From the sequence record NZ_CP033968.1: a DNA stretch of 64,000 bases; one strand, 5' to 3'. Each line of letters starts with the position of its first letter. Positions within the stretch are counted from its first letter, which is position 1. Both the position numbers and the translations under genes were made by a program. The stretch comes from a plasmid. Positions 6,421 to 48,031 of this stretch are shown piece after piece. Below the pieces are notes generated by a model. The model saw only the letters and a program-made list of their open reading frames with translations, was not told the DNA's origin and made no database searches.

Positions 6421-6444
6421 TATCGGTACGCGTTATTCTTCGCC
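6421..6444 (+). promoter_or_regulatory. GGTACG box copy a (tatcggtacgcgttattcttcg)
   Basis: member of the recurring motif family (see findings); lies in 5' leader of OmpA-like/tra operon. Confidence 0.4.
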
Positions 6445-6465
6445 ATCACATCATCCTGTATCGCA

Positions 6466-7092
6466 ATGACCCGACTTCTCAAACCGGCAGTCGCCCTTGT
6501 GTTCGCGAGCCTCGCGTGGCAGGCGTGGGCGGTGGACGCGCATCAGATCGTCGTTCCCCAAAGCGACGGCATCGCAATTGAGCCCGCCCATCGCGCTCAC
6601 GTTTTGTCCGACCAGCAGCGGAACTTCCAACTGAAGCGCGATGGCGCTTTCTGGATGGTCATGGAACCCGCACGCTCGCGCGCACTGATACCGGAGGAGG
6701 AAGCTCGCCTAGCGGCAGAGGAAGCCAGCTTGAACGCCGCGCCCAAGGATTCGACGCCCGTAGCGGCTGCGACTCTCCATTTCTCGTTCAACCGGGCAAA
6801 GCCTATGTCTTGGAGCCCGCTGGCCAAAGTGCTGAATCAGGCCCAGACTTCATCGGCGCGCATCACCGTGGTCGGCCACGCCGACGAGGTGGGAACCGCT
6901 CAGTACAACAAGCGACTCTCCGAGGTCCGCGCAAACGAGGTTCGTCGCTACCTGACGGCAAAGGGCGTCGATCCCGCTCGGATCAGTGTTGAAGGGCGGG
7001 GCAAACTCGAGCCGGTTGCCCCTGGTGATGGCGTACGGAACCGGCGGGCGGTCATTGACGTCCTGGCATTTCCGCAGGGGGCAGGCCAGTGA
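6466..7092 (+). CDS. OmpA-family protein, first gene of tra operon
   Basis: signal peptide MTRLLKPAVALVFASLAWQAWA; C-terminal OmpA-like motif ITVVGHADEVGTAQYNKRLSEVRANEVRRYL...NRR. Confidence 0.65.
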   Translation: MTRLLKPAVALVFASLAWQAWAVDAHQIVVPQSDGIAIEPAHRAHVLSDQQRNFQLKRDGAFWMVMEPARSRALIPEEEARLAAEEASLNAAPKDSTPVAAATLHFSFNRAKPMSWSPLAKVLNQAQTSSARITVVGHADEVGTAQYNKRLSEVRANEVRRYLTAKGVDPARISVEGRGKLEPVAPGDGVRNRRAVIDVLAFPQGAGQ

Positions 7093-7373
7093 AAGAGATT
7101 GATATCCCGCGCTACGTCGACAATCAACCCCAGCTGTTCTTCTGGGAACTTGACGAAGCCATCATTTTCATCGGTTGTTTAGCCGGCGGAATCTCACTGG
7201 GCGGCTACTTCACGCTCGTCAGCATGGCGCTCGGTTACGGGGCAGTGAAGGCGTTCCGACGCTTCAAGAATGGTTCGCTGGAAGGCATCCTCTACCACCT
7301 GTGCTATTGGGCTGGGCTCATGGCGCTGAACAAGCAGTATCAGGACTCCTCGAAGCGCGACTTCTTCTACTAG
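7089..7373 (+). CDS. traL: conjugal transfer protein TraL (F-type)
   Basis: ~94 aa; pattern P..L.NQPQLFFWELDE...G matches F TraL (TLTNQSRWFGLPLDE); GTG start overlapping upstream stop. Confidence 0.6.
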   Translation: MKEIDIPRYVDNQPQLFFWELDEAIIFIGCLAGGISLGGYFTLVSMALGYGAVKAFRRFKNGSLEGILYHLCYWAGLMALNKQYQDSSKRDFFY

Positions 7374-7400
7374 AACCCGCCCCTTTTTTTAGTCATCTAT

Positions 7401-7428
7401 TATCGGTACGTGTTATGTATCCGTACAG
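7401..7428 (+). promoter_or_regulatory. GGTACG box copy b (tatcggtacgtgttatgtatccgtacag)
   Basis: intergenic traL-traE. Confidence 0.4.
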
Positions 7429-7446
7429 CAACCGAACGGAGTTTTG

Positions 7447-8169
7447 ATGAAGATGCCGCTGCTTACCTCCACATGGGAGGGCTCCAACAAGCTGGCCAGC
7501 GTAATGATTCTGTCGAACGTCATTCTTGCCGTCGGCGTGGTCATTGCCGTTGGCAAGCTGGTCACTGACCACGAAGTCACCCGCATCGTGCCGCCGCACC
7601 TCACAAAGGCGGTCTCCGTTGGCTGGGAATCTGCCGACCAGGAGTATCTGGAAAGCTTCGCGACGTACGTGGCCACGCTCACAGCGAATATCACTCCGAA
7701 GAACGTCGATTTCGTGATCGAGCGGCTTTCTGGCCTAGTCTCCCCACGGGTCTACACCAACGTTCGTCAGCAACTGCTGGTGCTGAGCAAGAACCCAGTC
7801 TTCAAGCACAACGGTGGCTCGGTTCGCTTCGACCCGTCGAAGGTGGTGTCCGAGAAGGAGACGAAGAAGGTCTTCATCCTTGGCCAGATGACCACCCAGA
7901 GCATCGGCGGCAAGGACACGAAGAACTATGTGATCGAGATGAACGTCGTCATGCGTGACGGGCGTCCATGGGTGGACAGCCTTGACCATTACGAAGGCTC
8001 CGATCCTCATACGCTCACCTGGATCGAGAAGAATCCGGTCCTCGCTCAAGAGGCCCTCCGCCGACAAGCGGAGAGTGCGGCAACGCAGGCCGATCAGATC
8101 CTCAAGCAGCAGGCCGCCGAATCCGTGAGCATCCAGCCCCTGAACACAACCAAGGAGGTTGCGCAATGA
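7447..8169 (+). CDS. traE: conjugal transfer protein TraE (F-type)
   Basis: N-terminal TM helix and periplasmic domain resembling F TraE; position after traL; GGAG upstream of ATG 7447. Confidence 0.6.
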   Translation: MKMPLLTSTWEGSNKLASVMILSNVILAVGVVIAVGKLVTDHEVTRIVPPHLTKAVSVGWESADQEYLESFATYVATLTANITPKNVDFVIERLSGLVSPRVYTNVRQQLLVLSKNPVFKHNGGSVRFDPSKVVSEKETKKVFILGQMTTQSIGGKDTKNYVIEMNVVMRDGRPWVDSLDHYEGSDPHTLTWIEKNPVLAQEALRRQAESAATQADQILKQQAAESVSIQPLNTTKEVAQ

Positions 8170-9023
8170 AGCGCCTCGCACTAGCTGTCGCCGCGCTGAT
8201 CGCGCTACCAGTCCTCGCGGACGAACTGCCCCCGCCGGTCCCCGGCAAGAAGCTCTCGGCGGCAGAGTCTCGCCTCGCGGAAATTGCCGCTAAGCGGGTA
8301 CAGAAAGTCCCCGCACAGAACCTGCCCGGCTTGGGCACCATGCCAGGCGACACCCAGGTGTACAAGCCGCAGGTTGTCCGCGTGAGCCCAGACCGCAATG
8401 AGGTCATCAACGTTTCGTCGGGCCTGCCCAATCGTATCGCGACACCGTTTGCAAACCCCCAGTCCATCGACGGGCAATCGGCTGACGTCGAAGTGAAGGC
8501 GGTGGGGCAGTCCCTCTACGTCACGATGAAGACCGATCGCTCGGTGGCACTGTATGTGACCGGTGACAAGCCAAACGATCCCGTCGTTTCGCTGACGCTC
8601 GTTCCCAAGAGCCTGCCTGCACAGACGATCACCCTCCAACTGGACAAGCCCGTTGCAAGCACGGGCGCTGTGCCCGGCGACGAAGAGCGGGGCGCCGACA
8701 GCTCGGTCTATACCGATCGCTTGCGCTACGTTCTGCGTCAGATCGCTCTTGGCAAGGTCCCGGAAGGCTTCTCGGACGGCGTTCTTCCGAAGTCAGTCGC
8801 ACGGATGGGGCCGGTGATCGCCTATCCATTGACCCGCTACTCGGGCCCTACCTACGACATCTTCCGCTACCGCATCGAGGCCTCAGTCGATAGCGTCGAT
8901 CTCGACGAGGGCGCGTTCTACACCGACGGCGTGCGTGCCGTGGCCTTCTTCCCATACGCCGCATTGCGCAAGGGCGAGTCGACCGAAGTGTTCATCGTAT
9001 CCGACAAGACGGAGAGCAACTGA
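8166..9023 (+). CDS. traK: conjugal transfer protein TraK-like (secretin-like/VirB9-like)
   Basis: signal peptide; synteny traE-traK-traB; AAGGAGG before ATG; overlap ATGA with traE stop. Confidence 0.5.
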   Translation: MKRLALAVAALIALPVLADELPPPVPGKKLSAAESRLAEIAAKRVQKVPAQNLPGLGTMPGDTQVYKPQVVRVSPDRNEVINVSSGLPNRIATPFANPQSIDGQSADVEVKAVGQSLYVTMKTDRSVALYVTGDKPNDPVVSLTLVPKSLPAQTITLQLDKPVASTGAVPGDEERGADSSVYTDRLRYVLRQIALGKVPEGFSDGVLPKSVARMGPVIAYPLTRYSGPTYDIFRYRIEASVDSVDLDEGAFYTDGVRAVAFFPYAALRKGESTEVFIVSDKTESN

Positions 9024-9024
9024 C

Positions 9025-10248
9025 ATGTCTGAGTCGCTTTCCGACAAGTTCAAGAAGAAGTGGCTGGACTTGCCACCCCGGTCCCGAACGGTCATTGCTA
9101 TCGCTGTGCTTTTCGGCTCGATGGTGGCTATCGGGTCGCTGTTCATCAAACCGCACAGCAAGCCCCGTAAGCAGGTTGAGCAGCCAGCGGTAAGCAACAT
9201 GCTGCTTCCCAAGCCCAAGGACACCACGGGGGAACAGCTGTCCGCGCAGAACTCTGCCACCCAGAAAGACGTCGACAGACTCAAGGGCGATCTAGAGGCA
9301 GCCGCGAAAGACAGCAGGGCTCTTCAGGCACGGATCGACGAGATGGAGAGGGAACGCAAGCAGCCGGCCAACGGCGTTACCTCGGACATGATGAAAGAAC
9401 TCATGGAAATGAAGGGCCGCCTCGAGGCCATGGAGCGCAAAGGCACCGCCCCTGGAAAGGCGCCGGCACTCTCCGACCCGTTGCCTGTTCCGACCGAAGG
9501 TGGGAAGGCGGGAGAGGAACCGCCAGAGCGTGCCAAAGACCAGGAAGTATCGCGCATTCGAGTATCGGGCAACGCAGCCACGACCACTGTAGCTCAAGCC
9601 AAGCAGGAATCGAAGCCGACACCGTACCTCACCGCGGGCTCAATGTTCGAAGCAATCCTGCTGAACGGTATGGATGCGCCCACCAACTCGGTAGCGCAGA
9701 AAAATCCTATGCCGGCCGTCATGCGGATCAAGACTGAAGCGCTGCTGCCGAATCAGTACAGCCACGATGTCAAGGAGTGCTTTGTACTGGTATCTGGCTT
9801 CGGGATCTTGTCAAGCGAGCGTGCCCAACTCAGGACTGAAACCCTCTCCTGTGTCCGCGAAGGGGGCAAAACCATGGAAGCCAAGGTCGATGGCTACGTC
9901 GTCGGCGAGGACGGCCGGGTTGGCGCTCGAGGCCGCCTCGTTTCGAAGCAGGGGCAGAAGATCGCGCAGGCTCTCACAGCTGGTGTCCTGAGCGGCTTCG
10001 CAACGGCGCTCACGCCAACGCAGGTGCCACGCCTGGACCTGAGCACTGGTGGCAACAACTTCATCAGTACCCAACGCGCGACGCCCCAATCGATCCTCGA
10101 AACCGGCGTGGCGAAAGGGTTCTCTTCCTCCGCGAACATGGTCTCCCAGTTCTACCTGGAACTGGCAAAGGAGATGACGCCGGTGGTCGAGATTGATGCT
10201 GGCCGCAAGCTGACTGTCGTCCTCATCAAGGGCGTCGAACTCAAGTAA
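9025..10248 (+). CDS. traB: conjugal transfer protein TraB (VirB10-like)
   Basis: N-terminal TM, coiled/Pro-rich linker, conserved C-terminal domain; synteny; start at M31 of track ORF with GGAG upstream. Confidence 0.6.
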   Translation: MSESLSDKFKKKWLDLPPRSRTVIAIAVLFGSMVAIGSLFIKPHSKPRKQVEQPAVSNMLLPKPKDTTGEQLSAQNSATQKDVDRLKGDLEAAAKDSRALQARIDEMERERKQPANGVTSDMMKELMEMKGRLEAMERKGTAPGKAPALSDPLPVPTEGGKAGEEPPERAKDQEVSRIRVSGNAATTTVAQAKQESKPTPYLTAGSMFEAILLNGMDAPTNSVAQKNPMPAVMRIKTEALLPNQYSHDVKECFVLVSGFGILSSERAQLRTETLSCVREGGKTMEAKVDGYVVGEDGRVGARGRLVSKQGQKIAQALTAGVLSGFATALTPTQVPRLDLSTGGNNFISTQRATPQSILETGVAKGFSSSANMVSQFYLELAKEMTPVVEIDAGRKLTVVLIKGVELK

Positions 10249-10268
10249 ACGGGTCAAGGAGGCCCACC

Positions 10269-10943
10269 ATGAAATTTCGACTTCTTCTCGCGACGCTTCC
10301 ACTGCTCGCGACCGGCTGCTCATCGATCTTGAACACAGCGGACAACGATTCCTTCTCGTGCCCGGGTATGCCGCAGGGAATCATCTGCAAGACGCCGCTG
10401 GCCGTCTACAAATCGACGAACCAGATGCCGCAACCGACGGAGAGCGATCGCCCCTTTGGGTCTTCAGGAGCTCGTGGCGTTCAGGCGGGGGACGATCAGG
10501 GAAACGTTGCGCGCCCTGAGCTCACCAGCGGTGTTGCCGCAGGTGCGCCAGGGCTGATCCAAACGTCCGTCCCGGGTTCCGCCCAGGCCAACGGAACGGC
10601 ACGCCCGGTCCGCAAGCCGGCGCAAGTCATGCGCATCTGGATCGCTCCGTGGATCGATAGCAAAGACGATCTTCACTACCCGTCATATCTGTACACCGAG
10701 GTACAACCGCGCCGCTGGTCGTTCGGCAAGTCCGAGTTCGCCGGCAAGGGCATGGTTGTTCCTCATCGTGAGCTCGCAGCGGTCGCTCCGATTCCCCAGG
10801 AATCGGGCCGGCCGAACGGGAAACCTGCAGCGCAAAGAACTCCCGGGGGGGATGCGCCGCAGGCAGACGCCAACCAGCCATATCAGGGGACCGATGTGAC
10901 GAAGCTTGGCATGCCATCTCCCTCGGACATTAACCTCGAGTGA
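10269..10943 (+). CDS. traV: conjugal transfer lipoprotein TraV
   Basis: lipobox LLATGCSS; CPGMPQGIICKT di-Cys motif; VMRIWIAPWIDSKDDLHYPS matches F TraV LWIAPYIDNQDVYHQPS. Confidence 0.6.
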   Translation: MKFRLLLATLPLLATGCSSILNTADNDSFSCPGMPQGIICKTPLAVYKSTNQMPQPTESDRPFGSSGARGVQAGDDQGNVARPELTSGVAAGAPGLIQTSVPGSAQANGTARPVRKPAQVMRIWIAPWIDSKDDLHYPSYLYTEVQPRRWSFGKSEFAGKGMVVPHRELAAVAPIPQESGRPNGKPAAQRTPGGDAPQADANQPYQGTDVTKLGMPSPSDINLE

Positions 10944-10970
10944 TCATTTCCACATTAGGAGAAATCTCCC

Positions 10971-11267
10971 ATGAACCGCATTACCAACAACAAGCAAGCT
11001 CTGCTGACCATGGCCATGATGGCACTCGTGCTTGCGGTCAACGCGTCCGCGGCCTCGGATACCACGTTCGCGCAGATCGTGACCCGACTGTCTGACTGGA
11101 TGACCGGCTCGCTGGGCACGGTTTTCGCGCTCGGCTCGCTGGCTGTCGGCCTGGCCATCGGCGTCGTCAAGCAGTCCGTGATGAGCGTGGTGACCGGTGT
11201 GGCGGTGGCTCTGTCCGCCTCCCTGGGCCCTGGCGTCCTGCAAGGTCTTTTCACGGCAGCGCTGTAA
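10971..11267 (+). CDS. conjugative propilin (TraA/TrhA/TrbC-like)
   Basis: 98 aa; long leader ending AVNASA, then ~70-aa mature part with two hydrophobic helices; AGGAGA SD; sits between traV and traC as in SXT/R27. Confidence 0.5.
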   Translation: MNRITNNKQALLTMAMMALVLAVNASAASDTTFAQIVTRLSDWMTGSLGTVFALGSLAVGLAIGVVKQSVMSVVTGVAVALSASLGPGVLQGLFTAAL

Positions 11268-11397
11268 TGCTCGTGCCTCCGGCTTTCGTCGGAGGCCGCG
11301 TTGCACTGCCGATCTCGAAACTGGTTCGCGGCTCCGGCCGCGAACTTGTCTTCTAAAGCGTATCCCCCATTCAGAATCACAAGGCAAGGAAATCACG

Positions 11398-13857
11398 ATG
11401 CTCGGGTCTCAAAAATCGAAGGGTTCCAAGTCCACGCCCACCATTGACGGAGACCGGGACAACGTTCCTTACGCCAAGATCACTGTTCGCGCGTGGGACC
11501 CGGATACAAATCTGCTCCTCGCGTCCGACAAGGGCGAGCACTATCTGGGCGCTTGCTTCATCGCGGACCCGCTGAAAGGCGCGGACGACGCGACCGTCGA
11601 CAAATTCCGCTCGGCGTTGAGTATGCCGTTCCCGGCCGGGACGTTCATTCAAATCGGACTCCTGTCTTCCCCCGACGCAGACGAATTCTTTGACGCGTAC
11701 ATGGCAGGGAAAGACACTGAGAACGAAGTGCTCCGCGCGCTCGCCGAGCAGCATGCCTCGTACGTCCGGAATGGCCGCCATGAGCCTCTGGTTACCCGCA
11801 GTGGCGTACTGGTGAACCGGCAGCGGCTCATCCTTACGATCAAGACGCCTTGCGCTCGCGCACTCCCCTCGGCCGCGGATATCGCGGCTGCTCGGGAGAC
11901 TGTCGACCGCGTTCAGGAAGCATTCAAGGCCGCAGAGCTTCAGACCGTCCAGCTCGACGCTCAGGGATACCTCGTTCTTCTCCGCCTGATCGCGAATATG
12001 TACGAGCACCCGAGCTTCCACTACGACGAGACCCGTCCTATTCGAGAACAGGTCTTCTTCCCAGGTGACTCGATCAACTACGACGATCCGAAGCTCATCA
12101 ACTTCAATGATGGGGCGCACTTCGCCAAGGTCATGAGCGTCAAGCACTTCCCGAAAAGGGCGAGCTTGGCCATCATGAACCACATGATTGGCGATCCTCT
12201 TGGCCTGTCGAATCAAATCACAGACCCATACTACATGGTGCTGACGCTTCACTACCCTGATCAGGTAAAGAAGGTCGACTGGGTCAAAAACCGATCCTCC
12301 ATGCTGAATCACCAGGTGTTCGGCCCAACGGCGCACATGATCCCAATTCTTGGCTACAAGAAACATGGGATGGACGTCCTGGTCCACGACATCGAAGGCA
12401 AGGGCTCCATCGTCTGTGAGGCGAACTTCACGCTCTTCCTGTTCTCCCGCAGCAAGGAGAAGCTCAACAAGCTCGCGGCCGGCCTGCGCGCCTACTACAC
12501 CAGTCTGGCATTCGAGATCCGAGAGGACAGCCGCATTCTCGAGCCCCTCTGGAACAACCTCCTGCCTCTGAACACCTCTCTCGAGGGAATCCAGAATCTG
12601 TTCCGATTTCACACGATGGGCGTCACGCACGCCGTGCAGTTCATGCCAGTCATCGGTGAATGGACCGGCAGCGGGCGAAATGGGGCGCTCCTCCTCGTAA
12701 CGCGCCGCGGGCAACCTGCGCTGATCGATCTGTACGAGTCAACAACCAATTACAACGGCATCGTGTTCGCCGAGGCCGGCGCCGGTAAGTCGTTCCTTAC
12801 CCAGAAGATCGTCAGCGACTACCTGGCCGAGGGCGCAAAAGTCTGGGCAATTGATGCCGGTCGCTCATACTTCAAGCTATGCAAGGCAGCCAAGGGCTCA
12901 TTTGTCGAGTTCAAGGCTGACTCTGATCTGTGCCTGAATCCATTCACCTTCATCGACAACCTCGAGGAGGAAATGGACATCATCAAGGCGATGATCGCCA
13001 AGATGGCAGCCCCCGACGAGCCGTTGGGGGCGTATGCGATGTCCCGTCTCGAAGAGGCGATCACCAGCGTCTATCAAAAGTATGGCCGCAACGCGTCCGT
13101 CAAGGCGGTGGCCGAGTTCTGCCTGCAGCAGCCCGACGAAGACACCCAGCGCCTTGGCCGCCAGCTTTATCCGTTCGCCGGCGGCGCCTACACTCGATGG
13201 TTCGAGGGCGAAAACAACCTGGACATGAACAACGCTTTCGTTGTTCTGGAGCTCAGCGACCTGAAGGGTCGGAAGGCGCTCCAGCAGGTTGTGCTGCTTC
13301 AGTTGATGTCGCGCATCAACTACGACATGTTCCTCACACGTGGTCGGAAGAAGATCCTGATCATTGATGAGGCCTGGGAACTGCTCGACGACCCGGTCAT
13401 GGGCAAGGCAATGGAGGCCCTCTATCGCAAGGCGCGAAAAGAGAAGGGCGCCGTGCTGATCGTCACGCAATCGATTGAAGACCTCTACAACTCGCCGAAC
13501 GCTCGCGCTATTGCCGCCAACTCGGCATGGCAGTTCATCCTGAAGCAGAACAGCGAGTCGATTGACGGTGCGATCGCAGGCGGGCACTTCAAGATCGAAC
13601 CCTACGGTGCGCATATGCTCAAGACTGTGCATACGATTCCCGGAAAGTATTCGGAAGTCATGGTGAAGCAGAGCGAAAGCCAGTGGGGCATTTTCCGGCT
13701 GACTGTTGACCGCTTCACACAGGTCCTGTTCTCAACCAAGGATGACGAGCGCGACGCCATCTTTGATGCCATTGACCGCGGGGATAGTGTCGTCGACGCA
13801 GTCCATCGCTTTATCGACCAGGAAGCAGCAGCCGAGGACGCGCTCCTGGCCGCGTAG
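11398..13857 (+). CDS. traC: conjugal transfer ATPase TraC (VirB4 family)
   Basis: Walker A AGAGKSFLTQK, Walker B ILIIDEAW; ~820 aa; start at M68 of track ORF with AAGGA SD. Confidence 0.85.
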   Translation: MLGSQKSKGSKSTPTIDGDRDNVPYAKITVRAWDPDTNLLLASDKGEHYLGACFIADPLKGADDATVDKFRSALSMPFPAGTFIQIGLLSSPDADEFFDAYMAGKDTENEVLRALAEQHASYVRNGRHEPLVTRSGVLVNRQRLILTIKTPCARALPSAADIAAARETVDRVQEAFKAAELQTVQLDAQGYLVLLRLIANMYEHPSFHYDETRPIREQVFFPGDSINYDDPKLINFNDGAHFAKVMSVKHFPKRASLAIMNHMIGDPLGLSNQITDPYYMVLTLHYPDQVKKVDWVKNRSSMLNHQVFGPTAHMIPILGYKKHGMDVLVHDIEGKGSIVCEANFTLFLFSRSKEKLNKLAAGLRAYYTSLAFEIREDSRILEPLWNNLLPLNTSLEGIQNLFRFHTMGVTHAVQFMPVIGEWTGSGRNGALLLVTRRGQPALIDLYESTTNYNGIVFAEAGAGKSFLTQKIVSDYLAEGAKVWAIDAGRSYFKLCKAAKGSFVEFKADSDLCLNPFTFIDNLEEEMDIIKAMIAKMAAPDEPLGAYAMSRLEEAITSVYQKYGRNASVKAVAEFCLQQPDEDTQRLGRQLYPFAGGAYTRWFEGENNLDMNNAFVVLELSDLKGRKALQQVVLLQLMSRINYDMFLTRGRKKILIIDEAWELLDDPVMGKAMEALYRKARKEKGAVLIVTQSIEDLYNSPNARAIAANSAWQFILKQNSESIDGAIAGGHFKIEPYGAHMLKTVHTIPGKYSEVMVKQSESQWGIFRLTVDRFTQVLFSTKDDERDAIFDAIDRGDSVVDAVHRFIDQEAAAEDALLAA

Positions 13858-13877
13858 CGGATACGACACGTATCCTC

Positions 13878-13916
13878 GGAGGAATGCCCGCATTCGCGGG
13901 CATTCCTCTTTTCTCT
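13878..13916 (+). terminator. rho-independent terminator after traC
   Basis: ggaggaatgcccgc/gcgggcattcctc hairpin + ttttctctt. Confidence 0.7.
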
Positions 13917-13938
13917 TCGCACTTCAATCCATTTGCCG

Positions 13939-13960
13939 TATCGGTACGTGTTATGCTTCG
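13939..13960 (+). promoter_or_regulatory. GGTACG box copy c (tatcggtacgtgttatgcttcg)
   Basis: directly after traC terminator, ~80 nt before trbI-like start. Confidence 0.45.
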
Positions 13961-14038
13961 GCAATTACCAGATGAGCGAGATTCTGGCCGCTGGGCCATC
14001 GCGCTTCCCGCGGAACATTTCTTTTACCCGAGCACACC

Positions 14039-14467
14039 ATGACCCAAGACACCGACACCACTGCTCAACCCACTCCGCCGTCCTCTGCTACCCCGAGCCG
14101 CTCGCCTGATCAAGGGGGCGTGTCGCTCCTGACGACAATCATCGTTGCCGCGCTGTTTTCGGCGTTCTCCAGTGTCCTGAGCTGGAGCTTCGCTACGGGC
14201 GATCGCGTTCAAGCGACGCCGGTGGTCATGGTTGATGGGGCAAAGCTGGTGGAGCTCCAAGCGAAGGCGGCGCTCTCGAAGCCCGGGATGACCGTCGAAC
14301 AGGCGGAATCTCAGGGCAAAGAATTCGTGCAACAACTGAACAACGCGCTGTCGGAGTACACCCAGGCCGGCATCATCGTCGTCAACTCCTCTGTCGTGCT
14401 GAACAGGCCCGGCAGCGTGGATGTGACTGCAGCAGTCGCGCAGAAGCTCGGAATCAAGTTCGAGTGA
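14039..14467 (+). CDS. trbI: TrbI-like conjugal transfer protein (F-type)
   Basis: single TM then segment aligning with F TrbI (…QAWQQKHHAVILVSPAVVQGAPDITREIQQDI vs …YTQAGIIVVNSSVVLNRPGSVDVTAAVAQKL). Confidence 0.45.
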   Translation: MTQDTDTTAQPTPPSSATPSRSPDQGGVSLLTTIIVAALFSAFSSVLSWSFATGDRVQATPVVMVDGAKLVELQAKAALSKPGMTVEQAESQGKEFVQQLNNALSEYTQAGIIVVNSSVVLNRPGSVDVTAAVAQKLGIKFE

Positions 14468-14471
14468 CCTC

Positions 14472-15035: not shown

Positions 15036-15072
15036 TCCACACGTGACTACAGCCAACTGCTACGGGTCAAGA

Positions 15073-16023: not shown

Positions 16024-16037
16024 TGCGGAGCACCACC

Positions 16038-17492: not shown

Positions 17493-17501
17493 GGGACTGC
17501 T

Positions 17502-21002: not shown

Positions 21003-21033
21003 ACCCCTGTACGTCACTGAAGGATTGGAAACA

Positions 21034-21058
21034 GCCCCGGAATCCGGGGCTTTTCTTT
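21034..21058 (+). terminator. rho-independent terminator after traG
   Basis: gccccggaatccggggc hairpin + ttttcttt. Confidence 0.7.
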
Positions 21059-39183: not shown

Positions 39184-39363
39184 GGTTTCTCCTTTGAAAT
39201 GTGAAGAGTTACTGATGTCCGGGAATGCGTAACACGGCTCTAGAACGCGATTCGTCTGGCCAGAAACGTCCTCCTACCCCCCCACCACCTGCAACGACCA
39301 TCGACAACAAACCCTCGCTAGTTGCGACCGTCAGTTACTTCCCCCTGTCCGGCATATCGAAGA

Positions 39364-40536: not shown

Positions 40537-41208
40537 TTAGCTGACTAGATCAGGGACTTCAATCTGAGCCTTCGCCGTCAGTACACGTCCATAGTCGCGC
40601 TCATACAGCGCTGCATATCCGATCTGGACACGCAGAGGGAGTACATCCCATTCTTCGCGGGTAGGGGCGTAGGCCATCCACTGTGGGTCGTTAGCCATTT
40701 TTACGATGGCCAGCCACAGTTGCTCGTGCAGGTCTTTCTTGGAATAGAAGTCTTCGATCGAGAGATAGTCGGCCTGATTGAGTACCTGTACGGTCGGGAT
40801 GCCGAGCCACTCCGCAATCGTGTCGAACCGATCCTTACCAAGCGATTTGATAGAGCGGTTACCGCTCATGATCGAGTTCCAGTACACCGGGGTGACTCCG
40901 AGGATGTCGGAGATCGTCCGCTGCGGAAGCCCGCGGTCAATCAGAGTCTTCCTGATCAGGTTGATCAGGCGAATACCATCAACATGGCGCTTGCCCGAGG
41001 CCTCAGCCTCGTGCTCAGACGCAGTGCTTTCAGCGCCGTGCTGTTCGTGCGTAGTCATTTTGGCGGTCACTTCGGTCGTCTTTCGCGATTTTGCGGAAAC
41101 TCGCCGCGTCGGTGCTGCCGCATGCGATCCACCACCGTGTGCAGGCGCGGACTTTGTCATAGCTTCGTTCTCCGACGTGGCTAACAGGTCAGTAATCGGG
41201 AGAGGCAA
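40537..41208 (-). CDS. putative HTH (XRE-like) transcriptional regulator
   Basis: LPQRTISDILGVTPVYWNSIMSGNRSI helix-turn-helix-like segment; start uncertain (alternatives at M17, M51). Confidence 0.45.
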   Translation of the reverse strand: MPLPITDLLATSENEAMTKSAPAHGGGSHAAAPTRRVSAKSRKTTEVTAKMTTHEQHGAESTASEHEAEASGKRHVDGIRLINLIRKTLIDRGLPQRTISDILGVTPVYWNSIMSGNRSIKSLGKDRFDTIAEWLGIPTVQVLNQADYLSIEDFYSKKDLHEQLWLAIVKMANDPQWMAYAPTREEWDVLPLRVQIGYAALYERDYGRVLTAKAQIEVPDLVS

Positions 41209-41344
41209 TCGACGCGCAGGGCTCGTCTTGCCTTATTGTCTTAGCAATCTGATTCTACACACATAACAACAAGATTCAAGTCTCTTATGCCATCGAGACA
41301 ACAAGACAATCTTTTAGTATGTTTTTGCGTCTCGTTGTTTTCAG

Positions 41345-41367
41345 TGTACGTGTTATGTATAATTCCA
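41345..41367 (+). promoter_or_regulatory. GGTACG box copy e overlapping -10 (gtgtacgtgttatgtataat)
   Basis: TTGTTT -35-like 17 nt upstream of TATAAT (41358-41363); motif in spacer. Confidence 0.45.
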
Positions 41368-41415
41368 TCGCGCAGACGTAGACGTACCCGATCAACCCAT
41401 ACAAGGAGGTCATCC

Positions 41416-42378
41416 ATGCTGCCCATGGACGCCAAAAAGAACGCCGACTCCTATTCGTATCCCAATGGGATGCTGAACTCGGGATACGTCGGCGGCGTGC
41501 TTCGCAACCCAGATCCTGCCAACGGCATCTGCTATATCCAGCAGACCCGTAACGAGAATCACATGTTGCCGATCGCGTTCGACCCGAAGAAAACGCCGCT
41601 TCCTCGCAACATTCAGGAAGGGGACCTGATCTTCGCGATCTGCCACGCTTCGGGTGAGCGCAAGGAAGACCAGCGCATCGTCCACATGAAGAGCATCTCG
41701 TTCGAACAGCCGAACACCATGCACCTGGACAAGCGCTTCGCCGATGACCTGCTGCGCAAATGGGGTTCGCTCGTCCACGCAGCGGCGAAGGACTCCGGCA
41801 CCCCGGATTCGATTCGCAAGCTGGAAGAGCAGTTTGGCCGCTCGAGTGATACTCAGGCTCGGCTCGACAGCATCGACTGGCGTGTTCTTGGGCTGAACAA
41901 GAACGCTACCAACACTGTCCGTCTCGCAGGCTTCATTCAGGCCAAAAGTCTGGAGCAGAATCGAGTCGGCCCCGATGGCAAGCCCCTTAACGATCGCCTG
42001 GTCGTCCTCCTTCGCCAGACAAAGGACCCGGACAAGTCGATCGCGATCCGCTGGTACAGCAAGAACCTGCGACCCTTGGCCGAGAAGCTGCATCGCGGCA
42101 TTCCTATCTCCGTGAGTGGTGAGTTCCGACTGGACGTGAAGGCTATTGCGCCGCCCGACCCGGACAGCGGCATTGCACCGGTTTCGTCGATTCCATTCAT
42201 CCAGGCGAAGGATTTCCCTTCCCCTGTCGCACCGGGGTCCGATCTCATTCGGGTCATTCCCAGCTGGGCCGCTGAACTCTTCGAACGCCCCACGCAACGT
42301 GAAGTCGAAGCCAGCGCCCCGTCATCGGACGCCGAGCGCCAAGCACTCTTCGCCGCAATTCAACCATCTGCAACCTGA
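41416..42378 (+). CDS. hypothetical protein upstream of topB
   Basis: AAGGAGG SD; start at M44 of track ORF; no confident family. Confidence 0.45.
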   Translation: MLPMDAKKNADSYSYPNGMLNSGYVGGVLRNPDPANGICYIQQTRNENHMLPIAFDPKKTPLPRNIQEGDLIFAICHASGERKEDQRIVHMKSISFEQPNTMHLDKRFADDLLRKWGSLVHAAAKDSGTPDSIRKLEEQFGRSSDTQARLDSIDWRVLGLNKNATNTVRLAGFIQAKSLEQNRVGPDGKPLNDRLVVLLRQTKDPDKSIAIRWYSKNLRPLAEKLHRGIPISVSGEFRLDVKAIAPPDPDSGIAPVSSIPFIQAKDFPSPVAPGSDLIRVIPSWAAELFERPTQREVEASAPSSDAERQALFAAIQPSAT

Positions 42379-42582
42379 CAGGGGGATGTGAGCCGCACGG
42401 GCGCCGCGCAACGCGGCGTCCTCTCCGATCACTCGATTTGAGATGAACCGCGCTCATTGCTTCGCCTGGCGGCCCACCCCCGTTCCCGTCAATAGCAGGA
42501 CCTTCCGAGACCTAATCTGGGTCGTCTGGCCCACCCAACTCACTAGCGGGCCTCAGGTGCCGCTCACAGGACAGACCAGCCG

Positions 42583-45252
42583 ATGGGCAAACACCTCATC
42601 ATTGCCGAGAAGCCTTCAGTTGCAAAAGACATCGCCCTCTCCCTGGGAGGGTTCGGGCGCGTTGAGAACTGGCTGGAGAGCCCCGATGCCGTCATAACGG
42701 CCGCGCAAGGCCACCTCGTCGAGGTGTTCTCAAGCGAGATGGCAACATCAGGAAAGAGCCTCGAGACGTTGCCAGTGATCCCATCGAAGTTCGAGCTCCG
42801 CGTCATCGAGCTAGCGAACAAGCCGCAAGCCTTTCAGCAGATCAAGCGTTTGATGGCTCGCAACGATATTGACCGCATCGTCAATGCTTGTGATTCCGGG
42901 AGAGAAGGAGAGCTGATCTTCCGCCTCATTTACGACCTGGCCGAATGCAAGAAGCCCGTCATGCGCATGTGGTTCAACTCGATGACGAGCGAGGCAATTC
43001 GAGACGCCTACCGAGGGATGCTACCAGGCTCTCGGTTCGATGCCCTGGCCGACGCCGCCTACTGCCGGACTGAGGGCGATTACCTGGTCGGGATCAACGG
43101 CTCGCGAGGTGTTACCCGCCTGTACGAGCGTCAGACGTCGAAAGCCGAGATCCGTTCGGTCGGTCGGGTCCAGACACCGACGGGAGCTCTTGTCTACGAT
43201 CGCGAAGTGGCGATCCGAACCTTCAAAGCGAAGGACTACTGGGAAGTCCACGGAGAGTTCGGTGTCGCTGCCGGCAGCTACATCGGAAAATGGATCGCAC
43301 CGGAGCGTGAAACCCCGGGTGACGCGCCTGAAGGTAGTTCAGATGGCCAGGCCGAGCTCGACCACCAGTATCGGATCTTTGATAAGGGCAGGGCAGAAGC
43401 AATCCTCACTCGCTGCACTGGCGTTGCCCCGTCCGACGTAAAGCAAGAATCGAAGCCGGCGACCAAAGGCTCCCCGAAACTCTATGACCTGACCCTGCTT
43501 CAGCGCGAGGCAAACAAGAAACTCGGGTTGACTTCGAAGCAGACCGACACAATCGCGCAGGCCCTATACGAGAAACACAAGGTCACGACCTATCCCCGAA
43601 CAGATTCCTGCTTCTTGCCAGAGGACTACATAGCTAAGGCCAAATCTGTCATTGAGGCCCTGGTAGAGACGCCATACCGTGACCATGCTACTCGCATCCT
43701 CTCGAACGGTTGGATCAAGCCTGACAAGCGAATCTTCGACAACTCGAAGATCAGCGATCACTTCGCGATCATCCCGACCGGCAAGATGCCTGAAGGCCTC
43801 TCACCCGACGAAGAGAAGGTCTATGACCTGGTGGTGAAGCGATTCTTGAGCGTCTTCCACCCAGCGGCTCAGTACGAAGTAACGACGCGACTTACGATAA
43901 TCGCTGGCGAGCACTTCAAATCCAGTGGTCGCGTTCTGGTCGATCCAGGTTGGCTTGCCGTCTACGGCACCCAGACCCAAGATGATGACAAGAAGATCCC
44001 GGCATTGACAAAGTATGTCCCAGGTGAGTCTGTGTCAACCGAGGGCATGGAGCTGAAGACTCTCAAGACGAAGCCTCCTGTGCGCTATACGGAAGACACA
44101 CTTCTCGGTGCGATGGAAGGCGCGGGAAAACTCGTCGACGACGAGGAACTCCGGGAGGCCATGAAGGAGCGCGGGCTAGGAGCGCCATCAACGCGCTCCG
44201 CGATCATTGAAGGGCTTCTTGCGACCAAGGATGGCCGCGATCGGCCAATGGAGCCCTATCTCCGACGAGACGGGAAGACCCTTGTACCGAGCCAGAAGCT
44301 AATGAGCTTGATTGCATTCCTGCGAGAGAATGGTCTCGACCGCCTCACTTCGCCCGCTTTGACTGGCGAATGGGAACACAAGCTTCGCCTGATGGAACGA
44401 GGCGAGTACCTGCGGCCCGCCTTCAACTCGGAGATCTCCGAATTCACACGCCATATCATCAAAGCCATCCGAGAGCAGGCCGCTCAGGTTGTAGTGAAAA
44501 AGCTCGATGGAAAGTGTCCGAACTGTGGTGGCGAAATCTCGGTTGGCGCCAGATCGTTCGACTGTGAGTCCGGCTGCGGATTCCGGTTCTGGCGTGAGGT
44601 CGCGGGTCGCCCCCTGAAGCCTCAGGAGGTTGAAGCTCTTCTTGCCAAAGGGACGGTCGAAAACCTCTCGGGGTTCGTCAGCTCCAGCAAGAAGCGCTTC
44701 ACGGCGGGGCTAACGCTCACGGAGGACTTCAAACTGAAGTTCGTGTTCGATGAGACCGCGCAGTCAAAGGACGCGTCCGGAGCGCTGGTGCATTGTCCCA
44801 CTTGCGAAAAACTGATGCGCAGGTTCAAAGGTGCAAACGGCTTCTTCTGGTCATGCACAGATCGTGAGAACTGTAAGACTACCTTAGACGACAAGGCGGG
44901 AAATCCTGTGGCAAAGGCCGCTGCCCGGCCGTGTCCGAAGTGCGGTCACGACATGAACCGTATTCCCTGGCAGAAGCGCCATTTCTGGGCTTGCTCAGAC
45001 CGGGAGCAATGCAAGCACACCATGGATGACAAGGATGGCGTCCCGGTGGAGAAGGCACAGTCGTTTCCATGTCCTGACTGCTCGAAGCCCATGTATCGCC
45101 GCCAGCGCCGCGACCAGAAAGGCTATTTCTGGGGATGCAGTGGTTACCAGAAAGACGGCAGCGGCTGCAGCTGCATGCTCGAAGACAGAGACGGGAAACC
45201 GGTGCCAAAGGCCACCGCTCCCAATATCCAAGACGATAGGACCTTCCTGTGA
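42583..45252 (+). CDS. topB: DNA topoisomerase III with C-terminal multi-zinc-ribbon domain
   Basis: N-terminal TOPRIM MGKHLIIAEKPSVAKDIA, type IA core; C-terminal ~230 aa with five repeated CxxC...CxxC zinc-ribbon units. Confidence 0.85.
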   Translation: MGKHLIIAEKPSVAKDIALSLGGFGRVENWLESPDAVITAAQGHLVEVFSSEMATSGKSLETLPVIPSKFELRVIELANKPQAFQQIKRLMARNDIDRIVNACDSGREGELIFRLIYDLAECKKPVMRMWFNSMTSEAIRDAYRGMLPGSRFDALADAAYCRTEGDYLVGINGSRGVTRLYERQTSKAEIRSVGRVQTPTGALVYDREVAIRTFKAKDYWEVHGEFGVAAGSYIGKWIAPERETPGDAPEGSSDGQAELDHQYRIFDKGRAEAILTRCTGVAPSDVKQESKPATKGSPKLYDLTLLQREANKKLGLTSKQTDTIAQALYEKHKVTTYPRTDSCFLPEDYIAKAKSVIEALVETPYRDHATRILSNGWIKPDKRIFDNSKISDHFAIIPTGKMPEGLSPDEEKVYDLVVKRFLSVFHPAAQYEVTTRLTIIAGEHFKSSGRVLVDPGWLAVYGTQTQDDDKKIPALTKYVPGESVSTEGMELKTLKTKPPVRYTEDTLLGAMEGAGKLVDDEELREAMKERGLGAPSTRSAIIEGLLATKDGRDRPMEPYLRRDGKTLVPSQKLMSLIAFLRENGLDRLTSPALTGEWEHKLRLMERGEYLRPAFNSEISEFTRHIIKAIREQAAQVVVKKLDGKCPNCGGEISVGARSFDCESGCGFRFWREVAGRPLKPQEVEALLAKGTVENLSGFVSSSKKRFTAGLTLTEDFKLKFVFDETAQSKDASGALVHCPTCEKLMRRFKGANGFFWSCTDRENCKTTLDDKAGNPVAKAAARPCPKCGHDMNRIPWQKRHFWACSDREQCKHTMDDKDGVPVEKAQSFPCPDCSKPMYRRQRRDQKGYFWGCSGYQKDGSGCSCMLEDRDGKPVPKATAPNIQDDRTFL

Positions 45253-47693
45253 ACTCAAAGAACCGGATCTTTCGTGCAGCTGTGCTTGTCTTCGGCTTCT
45301 GGTGGATCGTGTTCACCCTCTTGGAGTTTGGCGGCGCCCCGTTAGAAGTCATCCGGAACTGGGGGTACGTTTCGTACTCTTTCGGGTACTGGATCGCCGG
45401 CTCAATAGGCGGCCTGGCTCTCGGGATCTGGCTCATCTGGTTTGAGCGGGTCCAGGCGGTGAACCGCCTATTCAAAGGCATGGGAGGAAACGCTATCAAT
45501 GGCATCCAGTCGACGCTTGGACTGGTTCCAATGCTGGCCCCCCCGTCAGCACGCATCGATAGCGAATCCAAGCGGCTCCCAATGCAAAGCAAGGCGGTGA
45601 TGGATTGGCTGGAGCTCGCCAAGACCAATCATCCTCAGCATGCAGCATTCTTCCTTGCAGTGTGGGACATCTACTCTGCAAACAAGGAGCATCCTGCAAC
45701 GCATAGGAAGGGTGGCCATGCGAACCGGAAACTCTGGCAGCACTGTCTAGCCGTTACCGAGACTGCCTTCGCAGAAAGCTCGACATGGAAATACGATGGC
45801 GTGTACGTGAAAAAACGCGGCAAGGCAAAGATACTGCTTCTCAGCAAGCGCAATCCCGAGTACGAGTTCGACGCAGCGGACCCACTTGTCCCCATCATTG
45901 CGCTTGCACATGATTTCGGGAAGCTCGAGGCGTACAAGATTGGGGACGATGGCCAGATCGTTACCTTGGAGGAAGGGTCGAGCACCGATCACGACGACGA
46001 TCGCGTGTTTCACGATTCCCTGGGCGCCCGGATGCTCGCGCGACTTCCCGAGTACTGGCAGCTTCCCCCACGAGACCGCCGGGCCATCAACTTCGTGATT
46101 GGCCATTACCACCACCCCAGCGCCTTCCCCGTTGATGCGAACGGTTTCGCCCTTGACGATCGCATGTCCGCGCTGATGGAGTTCCTGATCTACGTCGACA
46201 AGAAGACGGGTATGCAGGAAAGTGGCCGCGACCTGCTCGAAGAGGACGAGGAGATTACTGAGGAACAATCGGAGTCGATTTACAAGGCTTTTGTCGAGGT
46301 CATCACCCAGTTTGGCCGCGTGAATGGCACCGGCAATAAGAGCACCGACGCCAGTTTGAAGATCGCCCAAAAGCACGACGGCTTGATCGTCGTGAAAGAG
46401 CTTGAGTTGCGTCGACTCATCTTGGCGAAGTTGGGCATGTCGCTGGACGACGGTGACTCGCGCTACCGGGTAACCATGAGCCTGCTGTACACCCTTGGCG
46501 AGAAGGGGCTTCTGTACGACAAGCACAATGGAATTGACTTCTCGCGCTACCACCCCATGCATTCGGTATCGTTCCGCAGCAGCAAGAACGGTCAGCATAT
46601 CGCTACGTGGGAACCCGTCATCATCTTCCGACCGCTGACGAAGACGCAGGAGTTCGCCGAACTTGGGGGCCTACCAAACTTTGGCTCGCGGATGGTGATC
46701 AACAAGCCCATCTACACGCACAACCCTGGTATTCGCGATGCTGAGGCATTGCGCGAGTTGGTTCGGCGTGCGTTTGGCGAAGATGTGGCCCGCAGCATCT
46801 ACATCTCGGGCCGCCAGGAAACTAAAACGGAAGCAAGGGCTCGAGAACAGAAGGTCGAAACGGCGGATGGCAAACCTGAAGGCCTCGAACCGATGGCGCC
46901 AACAAGCCTTGCGGCGGTTCCGGCAGAATCCTCTGCAGCCCTCAAGCCGTCGATGGCGGAGCAAGAGCCAGCACCGGCCATGCTGTCTCGCGTCATCACG
47001 GAGAATCAGTCGCCGGCAGCTCCAATGGAGCCGCCTACGAACGATGTCGCGACAGAGCATGTGGATGCGGACGATGACCCATCGCTCGAGGATATTGCCG
47101 CGCTCGAAAGCGAGATCGCATCCCCGGAGACCGGTGGAAGCGCGGACGAAGCTGATCCGTTCAGTGGGTTGCTACCTTCCTCACCAGACGCCGGAAGCAA
47201 TGAAGGCGCTTCCGTATTTGATGGCGACGACTTTGCCGATTTTCCGGCGGCGCCAGAGCCGGTCGCGAGCATCGACATTTCGGCGCCTGGTCACCGCATG
47301 CCTGAAGGCGAAGAGCGGCCTCTCATCGCTGACAGACCCGGTGTCGCGATCCCCGACAAGGATCGGCAGAATGCCATGAAACGCCGCACCGCCGAAGAAA
47401 CCAAAGAAGCACTTGCCGCTTTCGATAACTTGGCACCGCCGACGTTCGCCGCACGAACGTCAAAGCGTGCGTCCAGCCGCGAAATCTCGGATAACGCGCT
47501 GTCCAACGTTCTTGCGCTCATAAGCGACAACAAACTGCCGGTGTGCGGCCGGATGAACGGGCACGCGTACGTCCTAGTTTCCGACATCGCAAACGTCGCG
47601 CCAACCCTCGACGTCGAGCAGCTTGTCAAAGCGCGCGGACTGCCCACTGCCGAGCCGGCCGCTGGCAAGAAAATGGTTGGAATTCCGGAGTAG
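45249..47693 (+). CDS. candidate MOBH-family relaxase (HD-domain TraI-like) with N-terminal TM helices and acidic C-terminal region
   Basis: HD-like motifs HANRKLWQH...IALAHDFGK and His cluster VIGHYHHPSAF; GTG start overlapping topB stop; N-terminal hydrophobic helices; assignment tentative. Confidence 0.45.
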   Translation: MNSKNRIFRAAVLVFGFWWIVFTLLEFGGAPLEVIRNWGYVSYSFGYWIAGSIGGLALGIWLIWFERVQAVNRLFKGMGGNAINGIQSTLGLVPMLAPPSARIDSESKRLPMQSKAVMDWLELAKTNHPQHAAFFLAVWDIYSANKEHPATHRKGGHANRKLWQHCLAVTETAFAESSTWKYDGVYVKKRGKAKILLLSKRNPEYEFDAADPLVPIIALAHDFGKLEAYKIGDDGQIVTLEEGSSTDHDDDRVFHDSLGARMLARLPEYWQLPPRDRRAINFVIGHYHHPSAFPVDANGFALDDRMSALMEFLIYVDKKTGMQESGRDLLEEDEEITEEQSESIYKAFVEVITQFGRVNGTGNKSTDASLKIAQKHDGLIVVKELELRRLILAKLGMSLDDGDSRYRVTMSLLYTLGEKGLLYDKHNGIDFSRYHPMHSVSFRSSKNGQHIATWEPVIIFRPLTKTQEFAELGGLPNFGSRMVINKPIYTHNPGIRDAEALRELVRRAFGEDVARSIYISGRQETKTEARAREQKVETADGKPEGLEPMAPTSLAAVPAESSAALKPSMAEQEPAPAMLSRVITENQSPAAPMEPPTNDVATEHVDADDDPSLEDIAALESEIASPETGGSADEADPFSGLLPSSPDAGSNEGASVFDGDDFADFPAAPEPVASIDISAPGHRMPEGEERPLIADRPGVAIPDKDRQNAMKRRTAEETKEALAAFDNLAPPTFAARTSKRASSREISDNALSNVLALISDNKLPVCGRMNGHAYVLVSDIANVAPTLDVEQLVKARGLPTAEPAAGKKMVGIPE

Positions 47694-47696
47694 CGA

Positions 47697-47993
47697 ATGG
47701 ATCTCGAGAAGCCCACCAACGCTCGCGAGCAGATGCCTTCGGTTACCGAGTTCATCGATTCCCTGCGGAAGACATTCGGCAAGGAAGAGATCGACGCGTC
47801 CATCAAAACGGGGCTTCGTAACGGATCGTTCTTTGCCATCGAAAATGGCTACGTCGTCGGCACGCCTCCTCCGCATGCCTTGCTCGAGTACGAACGACGC
47901 CAGAAGGCCGCGGAGCAGCAGGTTCATTCGGACGAGAGCTCCCACAACCCCACGAACAGCGGAGCGTTGCTGCGCCCCCAAGAATCCATTTAG
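47697..47993 (+). CDS. small hypothetical protein
   Basis: ORF immediately after relaxase candidate. Confidence 0.3.
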   Translation: MDLEKPTNAREQMPSVTEFIDSLRKTFGKEEIDASIKTGLRNGSFFAIENGYVVGTPPPHALLEYERRQKAAEQQVHSDESSHNPTNSGALLRPQESI

Positions 47994-48007
47994 ATTTATA
48001 CGTCGTG

Positions 48008-48031
48008 TGCGTACGTGTTATGCTTCGTAAG
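48008..48031 (+). promoter_or_regulatory. GGTACG box copy f (tgcgtacgtgttatgcttcgtaag)
   Basis: ~150 nt upstream of lipoprotein gene. Confidence 0.4.

Follow-up and report, generated by a model that had tools for sequence, protein, structure and literature searches.

The box and the question it raises

The 64,000-nucleotide stretch of the plasmid record NZ_CP033968.1 that we analysed (hereafter, the window) carries a short sequence, or box, that recurs at the heads of several transcription units, among them conjugative transfer (tra) operons. What does this box do? A first-pass annotation, made from the letters of the window, had proposed either an operator for an element-wide repressor or activator, or an alternative class of promoter. 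Our results show that the box is real: it is enriched, intergenic, conserved across a family of plasmids and overlaps mapped promoters of the RpoD type. On balance, we favour the reading that it is an operator placed on sigma-70 core promoters and read by one sequence-specific protein encoded by the plasmid family, likely for coordinated repression; we infer protein binding, the sign of the regulation and the identity of the binder.

Sequence and copies of the box

Allowing up to two mismatches, GGTACGTGTTATG matched the window five times (at 6425, 7405, 13943, 41345 and 48010), always on the plus strand, against 0.56 matches expected, and the core 8-mer ACGTGTTA occurred six times, each time between genes. 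Box counts were made on the 341 kb of NZ_CP043439.1 with its annotation. This plasmid of Cupriavidus campinensis MJ1 (mating-pair formation type MPF_F, replicon cluster rep_cluster_332), called the sister plasmid below, is 98% identical to positions 6000-26000 of the window. Numbering the T of TACG as position 0 (T0), the alignment of 27 sister-plasmid sites yielded a box of ~21 bp with the consensus kTATnnrTACGTGTTAYGnAT, running from −7 to +13 and near-invariant at positions 0-8. A weak 'AC' lies at −16/−15, 16 nt upstream of the CGT, in 12 of the 27 sites. One may see in the core an imperfect 13-bp inverted repeat, TACGT-GTT-AYGTA, preceded by a kTAT flank; a few copies have the repeat in perfect form, and its halves are unequal, the left being near-invariant and the right degenerate.

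A position weight matrix (PWM) trained on the 27 sites found nine strong copies in the window (at least 19.5 bits) and four weak or marginal ones, all of them intergenic; in block shuffles the best score rose above 15 bits only once. The repeat and its intergenic upstream location, both reported in the first-pass annotation, are thus borne out, with the extent corrected. Three strong minus-strand copies (338, 6372 and 24342) and the four weak ones had been missed. Two partial copies had also been listed: that at 31968 is a true site (T0 31971), and that at 31403 consists of the left half TATCGGTACGT only and scores below 8 bits. The copies and the elements directly associated with them are the following.

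325 to 345, minus strand: strong box, T0 338, tttatggtTACGTGTTAcag, with an exact ACGTGTTA; 19.5 bits; upstream of a small hypothetical gene (72-339, minus strand) and intergenic by the sister-plasmid annotation
1590 to 1610, plus strand: weak box, T0 1597, TACGCGTTA; 12 bits; upstream of a DUF882 gene
2234 to 2254, minus strand: weak and doubtful box, T0 2247, TGCGTGTTA; 13.3 bits, a score reached by shuffles; in a convergent intergenic gap
6353 to 6407, both strands: bidirectional sigma-70-like promoter pair found by promoter scan, between the hypothetical/type IV coupling protein (T4CP) operon and ompA-traL
6359 to 6379, minus strand: strong box, T0 6372, attataacGACGTGTTAagtatt; 24.7 bits; upstream of the hypothetical/T4CP operon
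6420 to 6440, plus strand: strong box, T0 6427, tttatcggTACGCGTTAttcttc; ~40 nt upstream of the ATG of the ompA-family gene
7400 to 7420, plus strand: strong box, T0 7407; 36.2 bits, the top-scoring copy; in the traL-traE gap
13878 to 13909, plus strand: strong intrinsic-terminator-like hairpin, a 14-bp stem followed by a T run, directly after traC
13938 to 13958, plus strand: strong box, T0 13945; 29.3 bits; upstream of the trbI-like/signal peptidase/traF/traH/traG operon
24329 to 24349, minus strand: strong box, T0 24342, variant TACGTGTAT; 22.3 bits; upstream of a lytic transglycosylase/ATPase operon
29102 to 29122, minus strand: weak box-like site, T0 29115, TAAATGTTATG; 12.1 bits, marginal; upstream of a hypothetical gene (28477-28968, minus strand)
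31964 to 31984, plus strand: strong box, T0 31971, TACGTGTTG; 19.8 bits; upstream of a helicase-related gene (so annotated, and not 'RecG-like' as first named)
39225 to 39245, minus strand: weak box-like site, T0 39238, GCCGTGTTAcg; 13.2 bits, marginal; upstream of a hypothetical gene (38575-39183, minus strand)
41340 to 41360, plus strand: strong box, T0 41347, within the 17-bp spacer of TTGTTT (41335-41340)-N17-TATAAT (41358-41363)
48005 to 48025, plus strand: strong box, T0 48012; 27.6 bits; upstream of a Peptidase_M30 gene (by Pfam; first named a lipoprotein protease)

The hairpin at 13878-13909 divides the traE-traC unit from the trbI-like/traF/traH/traG unit, which begins at the next box.

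Box cores at times stand in close inverted pairs, back-to-back or facing, 5-30 bp apart. Such pairs occur at 16420-16458 of the relative L010 and at 36158-36179, 9956-9980 and 131338-131359 of pMOL30, the plasmid of Cupriavidus metallidurans CH34, and one pair in pMOL30 lies upstream of dsbC-traW-traU-trbC. This arrangement suggests cooperative binding or looping.

Distribution across the plasmid family

The box follows the plasmid backbone. In the sister plasmid the exact core TACGYGTTA occurs 25 times in 341 kb, and all 25 occurrences are intergenic, meaning that they fall between genes of the PLSDB gene table, which is incomplete. There was no exact core in the 44-kb accessory segment of the sister plasmid that carries mer and insertion sequences, nor in 150 kb sampled from the CH34 chromid. 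The regulon, with about 27 box copies per plasmid, far exceeds the six units first noted. The adjoining genes in the sister plasmid are the type IV secretion system (T4SS) operons, the T4CP, lytic-transglycosylase/ATPase and TopB/HD-helicase operons, and the genes for the M30 peptidase, ParM, a DNA methyltransferase and many small hypothetical proteins. Relative to the annotated genes, 18 sister-plasmid copies are co-oriented, 7 anti-oriented and 2 unclear.

Positions 40000-64000 of the window are 100% identical to NZ_CP037902.1, a 364-kb C. metallidurans plasmid. pMOL30 belongs to the same replicon cluster but is rearranged, and shares window positions 41306-54134 at 99.9%; two of the boxes (41347 and 48012) are present on it as identical copies. 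More distant relatives keep the same order of tra genes: pBVIE01 of Burkholderia vietnamiensis G4 with related Burkholderia/Caballeronia plasmids, a set of 240-400-kb Pseudomonas megaplasmids, and RPME01 of Methylibium petroleiphilum. TraE of pBVIE01 is 60% and that of a Pseudomonas plasmid 44% identical to the TraE of the window; a TraE profile search of genome contigs returned six loci only.

Boxes stand at orthologous sites in pBVIE01, the Pseudomonas megaplasmids, Cupriavidus TMH.W2 and RPME01. In pBVIE01 and Pseudomonas, despite this divergence of TraE, the core is unchanged ahead of the ompA-family gene and of the hypothetical/T4CP operon divergent from it, between traL and traE (the orthologous copies of the 7407 box), behind traC, ahead of the lytic transglycosylase, and close to DUF882. 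Orthologous copies of the 6372, 6427 and 13945 boxes were found in the relatives L002, L003 and L010, and of the 24342 box in L002 and L003. The orientation of the box flips at two orthologous sites, that of the helicase in Methylibium and that of DUF882 in Pseudomonas, where the counterpart of the 1597 copy, GTACGCGTTATG, lies on the opposite strand. The syntenic Paraburkholderia fungorum plasmid has no box.

Mapped transcription starts at the boxes of pMOL30

The transcription start sites (TSSs) of CH34 have been mapped (Grosse et al. 2022, PMC9045368, supplementary data set 1), and the pMOL30 coordinates of these tables match NC_007971.2. Six boxes have a nearby TSS, and each of the six starts is accounted for by a −35/16-17 bp/−10 promoter whose spacer or TSS is overlapped by a box, full or partial. 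The box is on the TSS at four sites, in the 17-bp spacer at one, and at the remaining one partial in the spacer with a full box upstream.

pMOL30, plus strand: TSS_19137, TTGACA-16-TATTAT; start at box position 5
pMOL30, plus strand: TSS_9976, GTCACA-16-TAGAAT; start at box position 4, on the strand opposite to the box; the −35 is weak and was scored (m)-sba by the authors (PMC9045368)
pMOL30, plus strand: TSS_23533, TTGACA-17-CAAGAT; start at box position 4, on the strand opposite to the box
pMOL30, plus strand: TSS_36162, TTGGCA-17-TATGAT; start at box position 4, on the strand opposite to the box
pMOL30, plus strand: TSS_38587, TTGACG-17-TAGCAT; box within the spacer
pMOL30, minus strand: TSS_13858, TTGACA-16-TATAAT; the spacer contains the partial box CACGTGTTG, and a full box lies 73 bp upstream

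The pMOL30 boxes that are not flanked by sigma-70 elements (record positions 3192, 16342, 204656 and 207608) have no mapped TSS; those at 204656 and 207608 are the copies identical to the window boxes 41347 and 48012. Since there is no fixed TSS offset and the boxes without sigma-70 elements are silent, the box is not a fixed-start promoter, and the alternative promoter class proposed at first is disfavoured. The box is superimposed on ordinary RpoD-type promoters, in both orientations and always within the footprint of the polymerase. The other half of the first proposal, an operator, is supported by this varied register.

The box-bearing CH34 promoters have moderate TSS scores (29-574) though they are near-consensus. 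The tra genes of pMOL30 (dsbC, traW, traU and trbC) are nearly silent in laboratory culture, with transcript abundances (NPKM) of 3-8.

Just downstream of a box-bearing intergenic region lies Rmet_6352 (pMOL30 22797-22976, minus strand), a 59-amino-acid open reading frame (ORF) that ranks with the most strongly expressed genes of pMOL30 (NPKM 439); its start, TSS_23019 on the minus strand, has a score of 1474 and was classed as non-RpoD.

Promoter architecture around the boxes

Similar arrangements can be read in the window. The pair at 6353-6407 comprises TTGCGA-16-TATAAT on the plus strand and TTGCAA-17-TAGAAT on the minus strand, with −10 hexamers that overlap on opposite strands. The 6372 box covers the predicted TSS of the minus promoter together with the spacer and −10 of the plus promoter, and this arrangement is kept in pBVIE01 and the Pseudomonas plasmid. 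The 6427 box lies downstream of the promoter at 6353-6380 and has a possible promoter of its own, TTGCAC-17-TATTCT. At the 24342 box, 24 nt upstream of the lytic-transglycosylase ATG, the copy sits in the spacer of TTGGCG-17-TATGAT, and the 7407 box has a TATTAT at −9 to −4, as at the TSS_19137 site. By sequence, the promoter around the 41347 box serves the hypothetical/TopB/HD-helicase operon, divergent from a gene for an XRE-family regulator. Its −35/17 bp/−10 layout with the box in the spacer recurs in four plasmid lineages: TTGTTT/TATAAT in the window, TTGTAT/TATAAT in pBVIE01, TTGTAT/TATTCT in Pseudomonas and TTGCGT/TATTAT in Methylibium, whose RPME01 retains the box at this promoter. The early observation that the box fills the promoter spacer and overlaps a −10 therefore holds for some copies and fails for others, where the box lies on the TSS.

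No single sigma-70 register prevails around the 27 sister-plasmid sites, where we sought a consistent one. A minimal TAnnnT hexamer is present in one of five box-overlapping registers at 17 of them, and a sequence of the TGTTATGCT type, resembling an extended −10 (by definition TGnTAnnnT, ~7 nt before the TSS), lies at box positions 4-12 in 4, including the equivalents of the 13945 and 48012 boxes, both of which contain TGTTATGCT in the window; the pMOL30 copy identical to the 48012 box shows no TSS. For the 13945 box the promoter scan gave no canonical −35/−10 pair.

Other promoter readings were tried and set aside. A simple sigma-70 −10 reading of TTATGn fails on its −7 position, which is mostly A, and would leave the Shine-Dalgarno sequence that follows the core by 3-9 nt at some sites upstream of the TSS. 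A sigma-54 promoter (GG at −24 and GC at −12, with 10 nt between) is rejected: both dinucleotides are kept in only 2 of the 27 copies and, of the five window copies, in 13943 alone. A promoter of the extracytoplasmic function (ECF) sigma type is likewise rejected: the 'AC' is present in only 12 of the 27 sites and not in the best window copies, and the TSS offset in CH34 is not constant.

Candidate box-binding proteins

Two proteins stand out as candidates for reading the box. One is encoded in the window.

40537 to 41160, minus strand: XRE/HTH_19 regulator gene; 207 amino acids, Pfam HTH_19, identical to Rmet_6162 of pMOL30

This XRE protein and the box are found in the same plasmids, the protein being 45-60% identical in Burkholderia, Pseudomonas and Methylibium; a word-indexed homology search returned seven sequences only. 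Its recognition helix, of the helix-turn-helix (HTH) type, reads IYWNS..GNR invariantly in four box-bearing lineages, and HVVG..GDR in the P. fungorum plasmid that lacks the box. In all the box-bearing relatives compared, the gene is divergent from a box-containing promoter. In CH34 it is strongly expressed (NPKM 530) from a very strong TSS (score 4924). Pfam detected no S24 peptidase domain in the protein, and hence there is no sign of SOS control. The in-window XRE protein is a good candidate for a box-binding repressor.

On pMOL30 no box adjoins the XRE gene in the region that we read, the plasmid being rearranged at window position ~41306. Window positions ~41298-41306 mark the exact rearrangement point (pMOL30 record positions 138356 / 204616): there, the XRE gene and its upstream region lie at 137.6-138.4 kb, and the box with a fused hypothetical/TopB/HD-helicase ORF at 204.6 kb. 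The breakpoint adjoins a further motif, ACAACAAGA, which is kept upstream of the XRE gene in the Cupriavidus, Burkholderia and Pseudomonas plasmids and which in Pseudomonas forms the inverted repeat AACAAGA-N8-TCTTGTT.

The other candidate is the Rmet_6055-family protein, 381 amino acids long and encoded outside the window (247475-248617 in NZ_CP037902.1). It combines a domain like region 2 of ECF sigma factors with two C-terminal HTH domains of the XRE type, whose recognition helices are invariant. Members of the family accompany the box through the same set of plasmids, and the P. fungorum plasmid has no homologue; in CH34 its mRNA reaches an NPKM of 294. As a monomer with tandem HTH domains, such a protein may suit the asymmetric core.

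Three regulators had been put forward by the first-pass annotation. The XRE protein is retained. In the ORF at 33947-34516 no HTH domain could be detected. HU binds DNA without sequence specificity, and recognition of a 9-bp invariant core is not to be expected of it. A full-text literature search for the box sequence returned primers only, and nothing on the box or either candidate was found in the searchable literature on megaplasmid regulation and plasmid sigma factors.

Proposed function and rival readings

We propose that the box is an operator placed directly on core promoters, in the −35/−10 spacer, on the −10 hexamer or on the TSS. These promoters drive the backbone operons for T4SS assembly, the T4CP, pilus maturation, TopB/helicase, ParM partition, methylases and small genes. 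A bound protein would compete with or occlude the host RNA polymerase, so that transfer and maintenance genes would most likely be repressed in concert and released under some signal. A dimeric HTH protein could take one strong and one weak half-site on the imperfect repeat, and the in-window XRE protein and the Rmet_6055-family protein would be the leading candidate binders. The modest scores of the box-bearing promoters, the near-silent tra genes and the high expression of the XRE gene are consistent with a repressor under such an occlusion model. Several observations weigh against it. All nine strong window copies are oriented toward the adjacent downstream gene, an orientation for which a pure operator has no need, and the nine most conserved bp (TACGTGTTA) are non-palindromic, with only partial dyad symmetry. 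The XRE gene's own promoter carries no box. Repression of the box-bearing CH34 promoters, if any, is incomplete, given their scores. The mapped TSSs are those of pMOL30, a relative that is rearranged and lacks most tra genes, and not those of the window's own tra promoters. Finally, the tra-operon-type copies 13945, 48012 and 7407 are without a recognisable −35 and may need some positive factor.

Some of these same observations would fit a box that is the promoter of a plasmid-dedicated, sigma-like initiation factor, the Rmet_6055-family protein, whose region-2-like domain would dock on core RNA polymerase while its two XRE-type HTH domains, standing in for sigma region 4, would recognise the asymmetric box in its double-stranded form. 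We hold this to be unlikely, though the least unlikely of the alternatives. The asymmetric core, the uniform orientation of the strong window copies, the tra copies that lack a sigma-70 −35, the ECF-like geometry of the weak 'AC' and the conservation of Rmet_6055 in the same plasmids all speak for it. However, Rmet_6055 mRNA is abundant in CH34, yet its boxes show no fixed-offset TSS; boxes without flanking sigma-70 elements are silent, and canonical −35/−10 pairs explain every one of the mapped starts. Moreover, seven sister-plasmid copies are anti-oriented, the five strongest window copies have no 'AC', and the C-terminal domains of Rmet_6055 are XRE-type and not sigma region 4. If a conserved chromosomal regulator of Beta- and Gammaproteobacteria bound the box instead, backbone expression would be tied to host physiology, and the invariance of the core across plasmids of Cupriavidus, Burkholderia, Pseudomonas and Methylibium would be understandable. 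This seems to us improbable, given the lack of any copy in the chromid sample and the absence of the box from the syntenic P. fungorum plasmid, where the XRE helix is altered and Rmet_6055 has no homologue; nor does the box match any of the host-factor consensuses compared, of which sigma-54 was the one tested computationally.

A slightly smaller chance still attaches to the box as an activator site for weak tra promoters, in the manner of the SetCD/AcaCD master activators. Several tra copies do have a poor or missing −35, and the silence of dsbC, traW, traU and trbC on pMOL30 is what an unexpressed activator would leave. But the box is placed at the TSS or between the −35 and −10, not upstream of or overlapping the −35 as class I and II activator sites do, its orientation and register vary, and the sister-plasmid annotations that we examined contain no FlhDC-like genes. 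Lastly, the box might act as RNA, as a 5′-leader element for an RNA-binding protein, a small RNA or ops-like antitermination; it heads many operons at variable distances from the start codons and also occupies the traL-traE gap inside an apparent operon. We reject this reading as very improbable on account of the TSS positions: starts fall inside the box (position 4-5), which leaves it only partly transcribed, or 24 nt past it, which leaves it untranscribed; both orientations also occur, and no ops sequence is found at box sites.

Neighbouring genes of the window

Downstream of boxes lie the TopB-like, HD-domain and Peptidase_M30 genes. The backbone of the window includes an unusual set of genes for DNA metabolism and other functions.

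25422 to 27914: adenosylcobalamin-dependent ribonucleotide reductase
42583 to 45252: TopB-like topoisomerase
45249 to 47693: 814-amino-acid protein with a weak Cas3-type HD domain
48101 to 49888: Peptidase_M30 ('hemagglutinin') gene

Pfam searches with 20 ORFs of the window and 10 of pMOL30 mostly gave no match. Positions 52000-64000 have a raised G+C content (up to 0.66) and are found neither in the sister plasmid nor in pMOL30 past ~54134. They form an accessory segment with zero box copies, in which mgtA and alkaline phosphatase genes are annotated in NZ_CP037902.1.

Significance

The plasmid family includes pMOL30, a model heavy-metal-resistance plasmid, and pBVIE01, as well as a large set of 240-600-kb megaplasmids of Pseudomonas, Stenotrophomonas and Methylibium with catabolic and resistance traits. 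We found no literature on the control of transfer and maintenance genes in this family. One invariant box on ~27 backbone promoters defines a regulon in silico, and together with two named candidate proteins it makes the control of conjugation across the family directly testable and gives a starting point for either blocking or inducing the spread of these plasmids. Some published pMOL30 data would also be accounted for by the box: the near-silence of the retained tra genes and, in CH34, an expression of the XRE gene that is among the highest of any plasmid gene. The sigma-like reading, if true, would mean a private, phage-like transcription programme for the transfer and maintenance genes of megaplasmids.

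Comparison with known systems

In IncP-1 plasmids (RK2/RP4), one or two plasmid-encoded repressors, KorA and KorB, act through a short operator at many backbone promoters, for replication, partition and transfer; their operators overlap −10 or −35 elements and are perfect palindromes. The box resembles them as one short putative operator repeated over backbone promoters. It differs in its asymmetric core, in belonging to MPF_F megaplasmids of rep_cluster_332 and in having candidates only for its binder. Neither KorA OA (GTTTAGCTAAAC) nor KorB OB (TTTAGCSGCTAAA) matched the window at up to two mismatches.

The likeness to ECF promoters (SigW, TGAAAC-N16-CGTA) lies in the CGT element, preceded at 16 nt by a weak 'AC' in about half of the copies, and in a family-conserved protein with a sigma-region-2-like fold. 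Unlike in those systems, the −35-like part is weak or missing in the best copies, the TSS offset is not fixed, and the protein has HTH domains of the XRE type and no region 4. The ops/JUMPStart element of the RfaH type was also discarded, since the window has GGCGGTAG at 62755 and 63461 only, a number expected by chance, and neither occurrence is near a box.

SetCD boxes of SXT/R391 lie immediately upstream of or overlapping the −35, in fixed orientation, and activate promoters that have no −35 (PMC4344509). Like the boxes of SetCD/AcaCD (IncA/C, SXT/R391; PMC4344509), ours is a recurring element, there of ~19 bp, that heads MPF_F-type transfer operons and accessory genes in an element-wide regulon. 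A class II box of that kind was nevertheless rejected: here the box is on the TSS, the −10 or the spacer, in both orientations, and several of the promoters have a consensus −35.

As with lambda CI, 434 and SetR (SXT), an XRE-family gene is divergent from an operon whose sigma-70 core promoter carries the box, and the quasi-palindromic 13-bp core resembles the 14-18-bp operators of phages. Unlike in the modules of phages and integrative and conjugative elements (ICEs), the box is scattered ~27 times over >300 kb and not clustered at one immunity region, the promoter of the XRE gene itself is free of it, and an S24 peptidase domain was not detected. With the operator sequences absent, an asymmetric core and dispersed copies, the box belongs to neither the KorA/KorB nor the phage/ICE modules, and functionally it resembles both.

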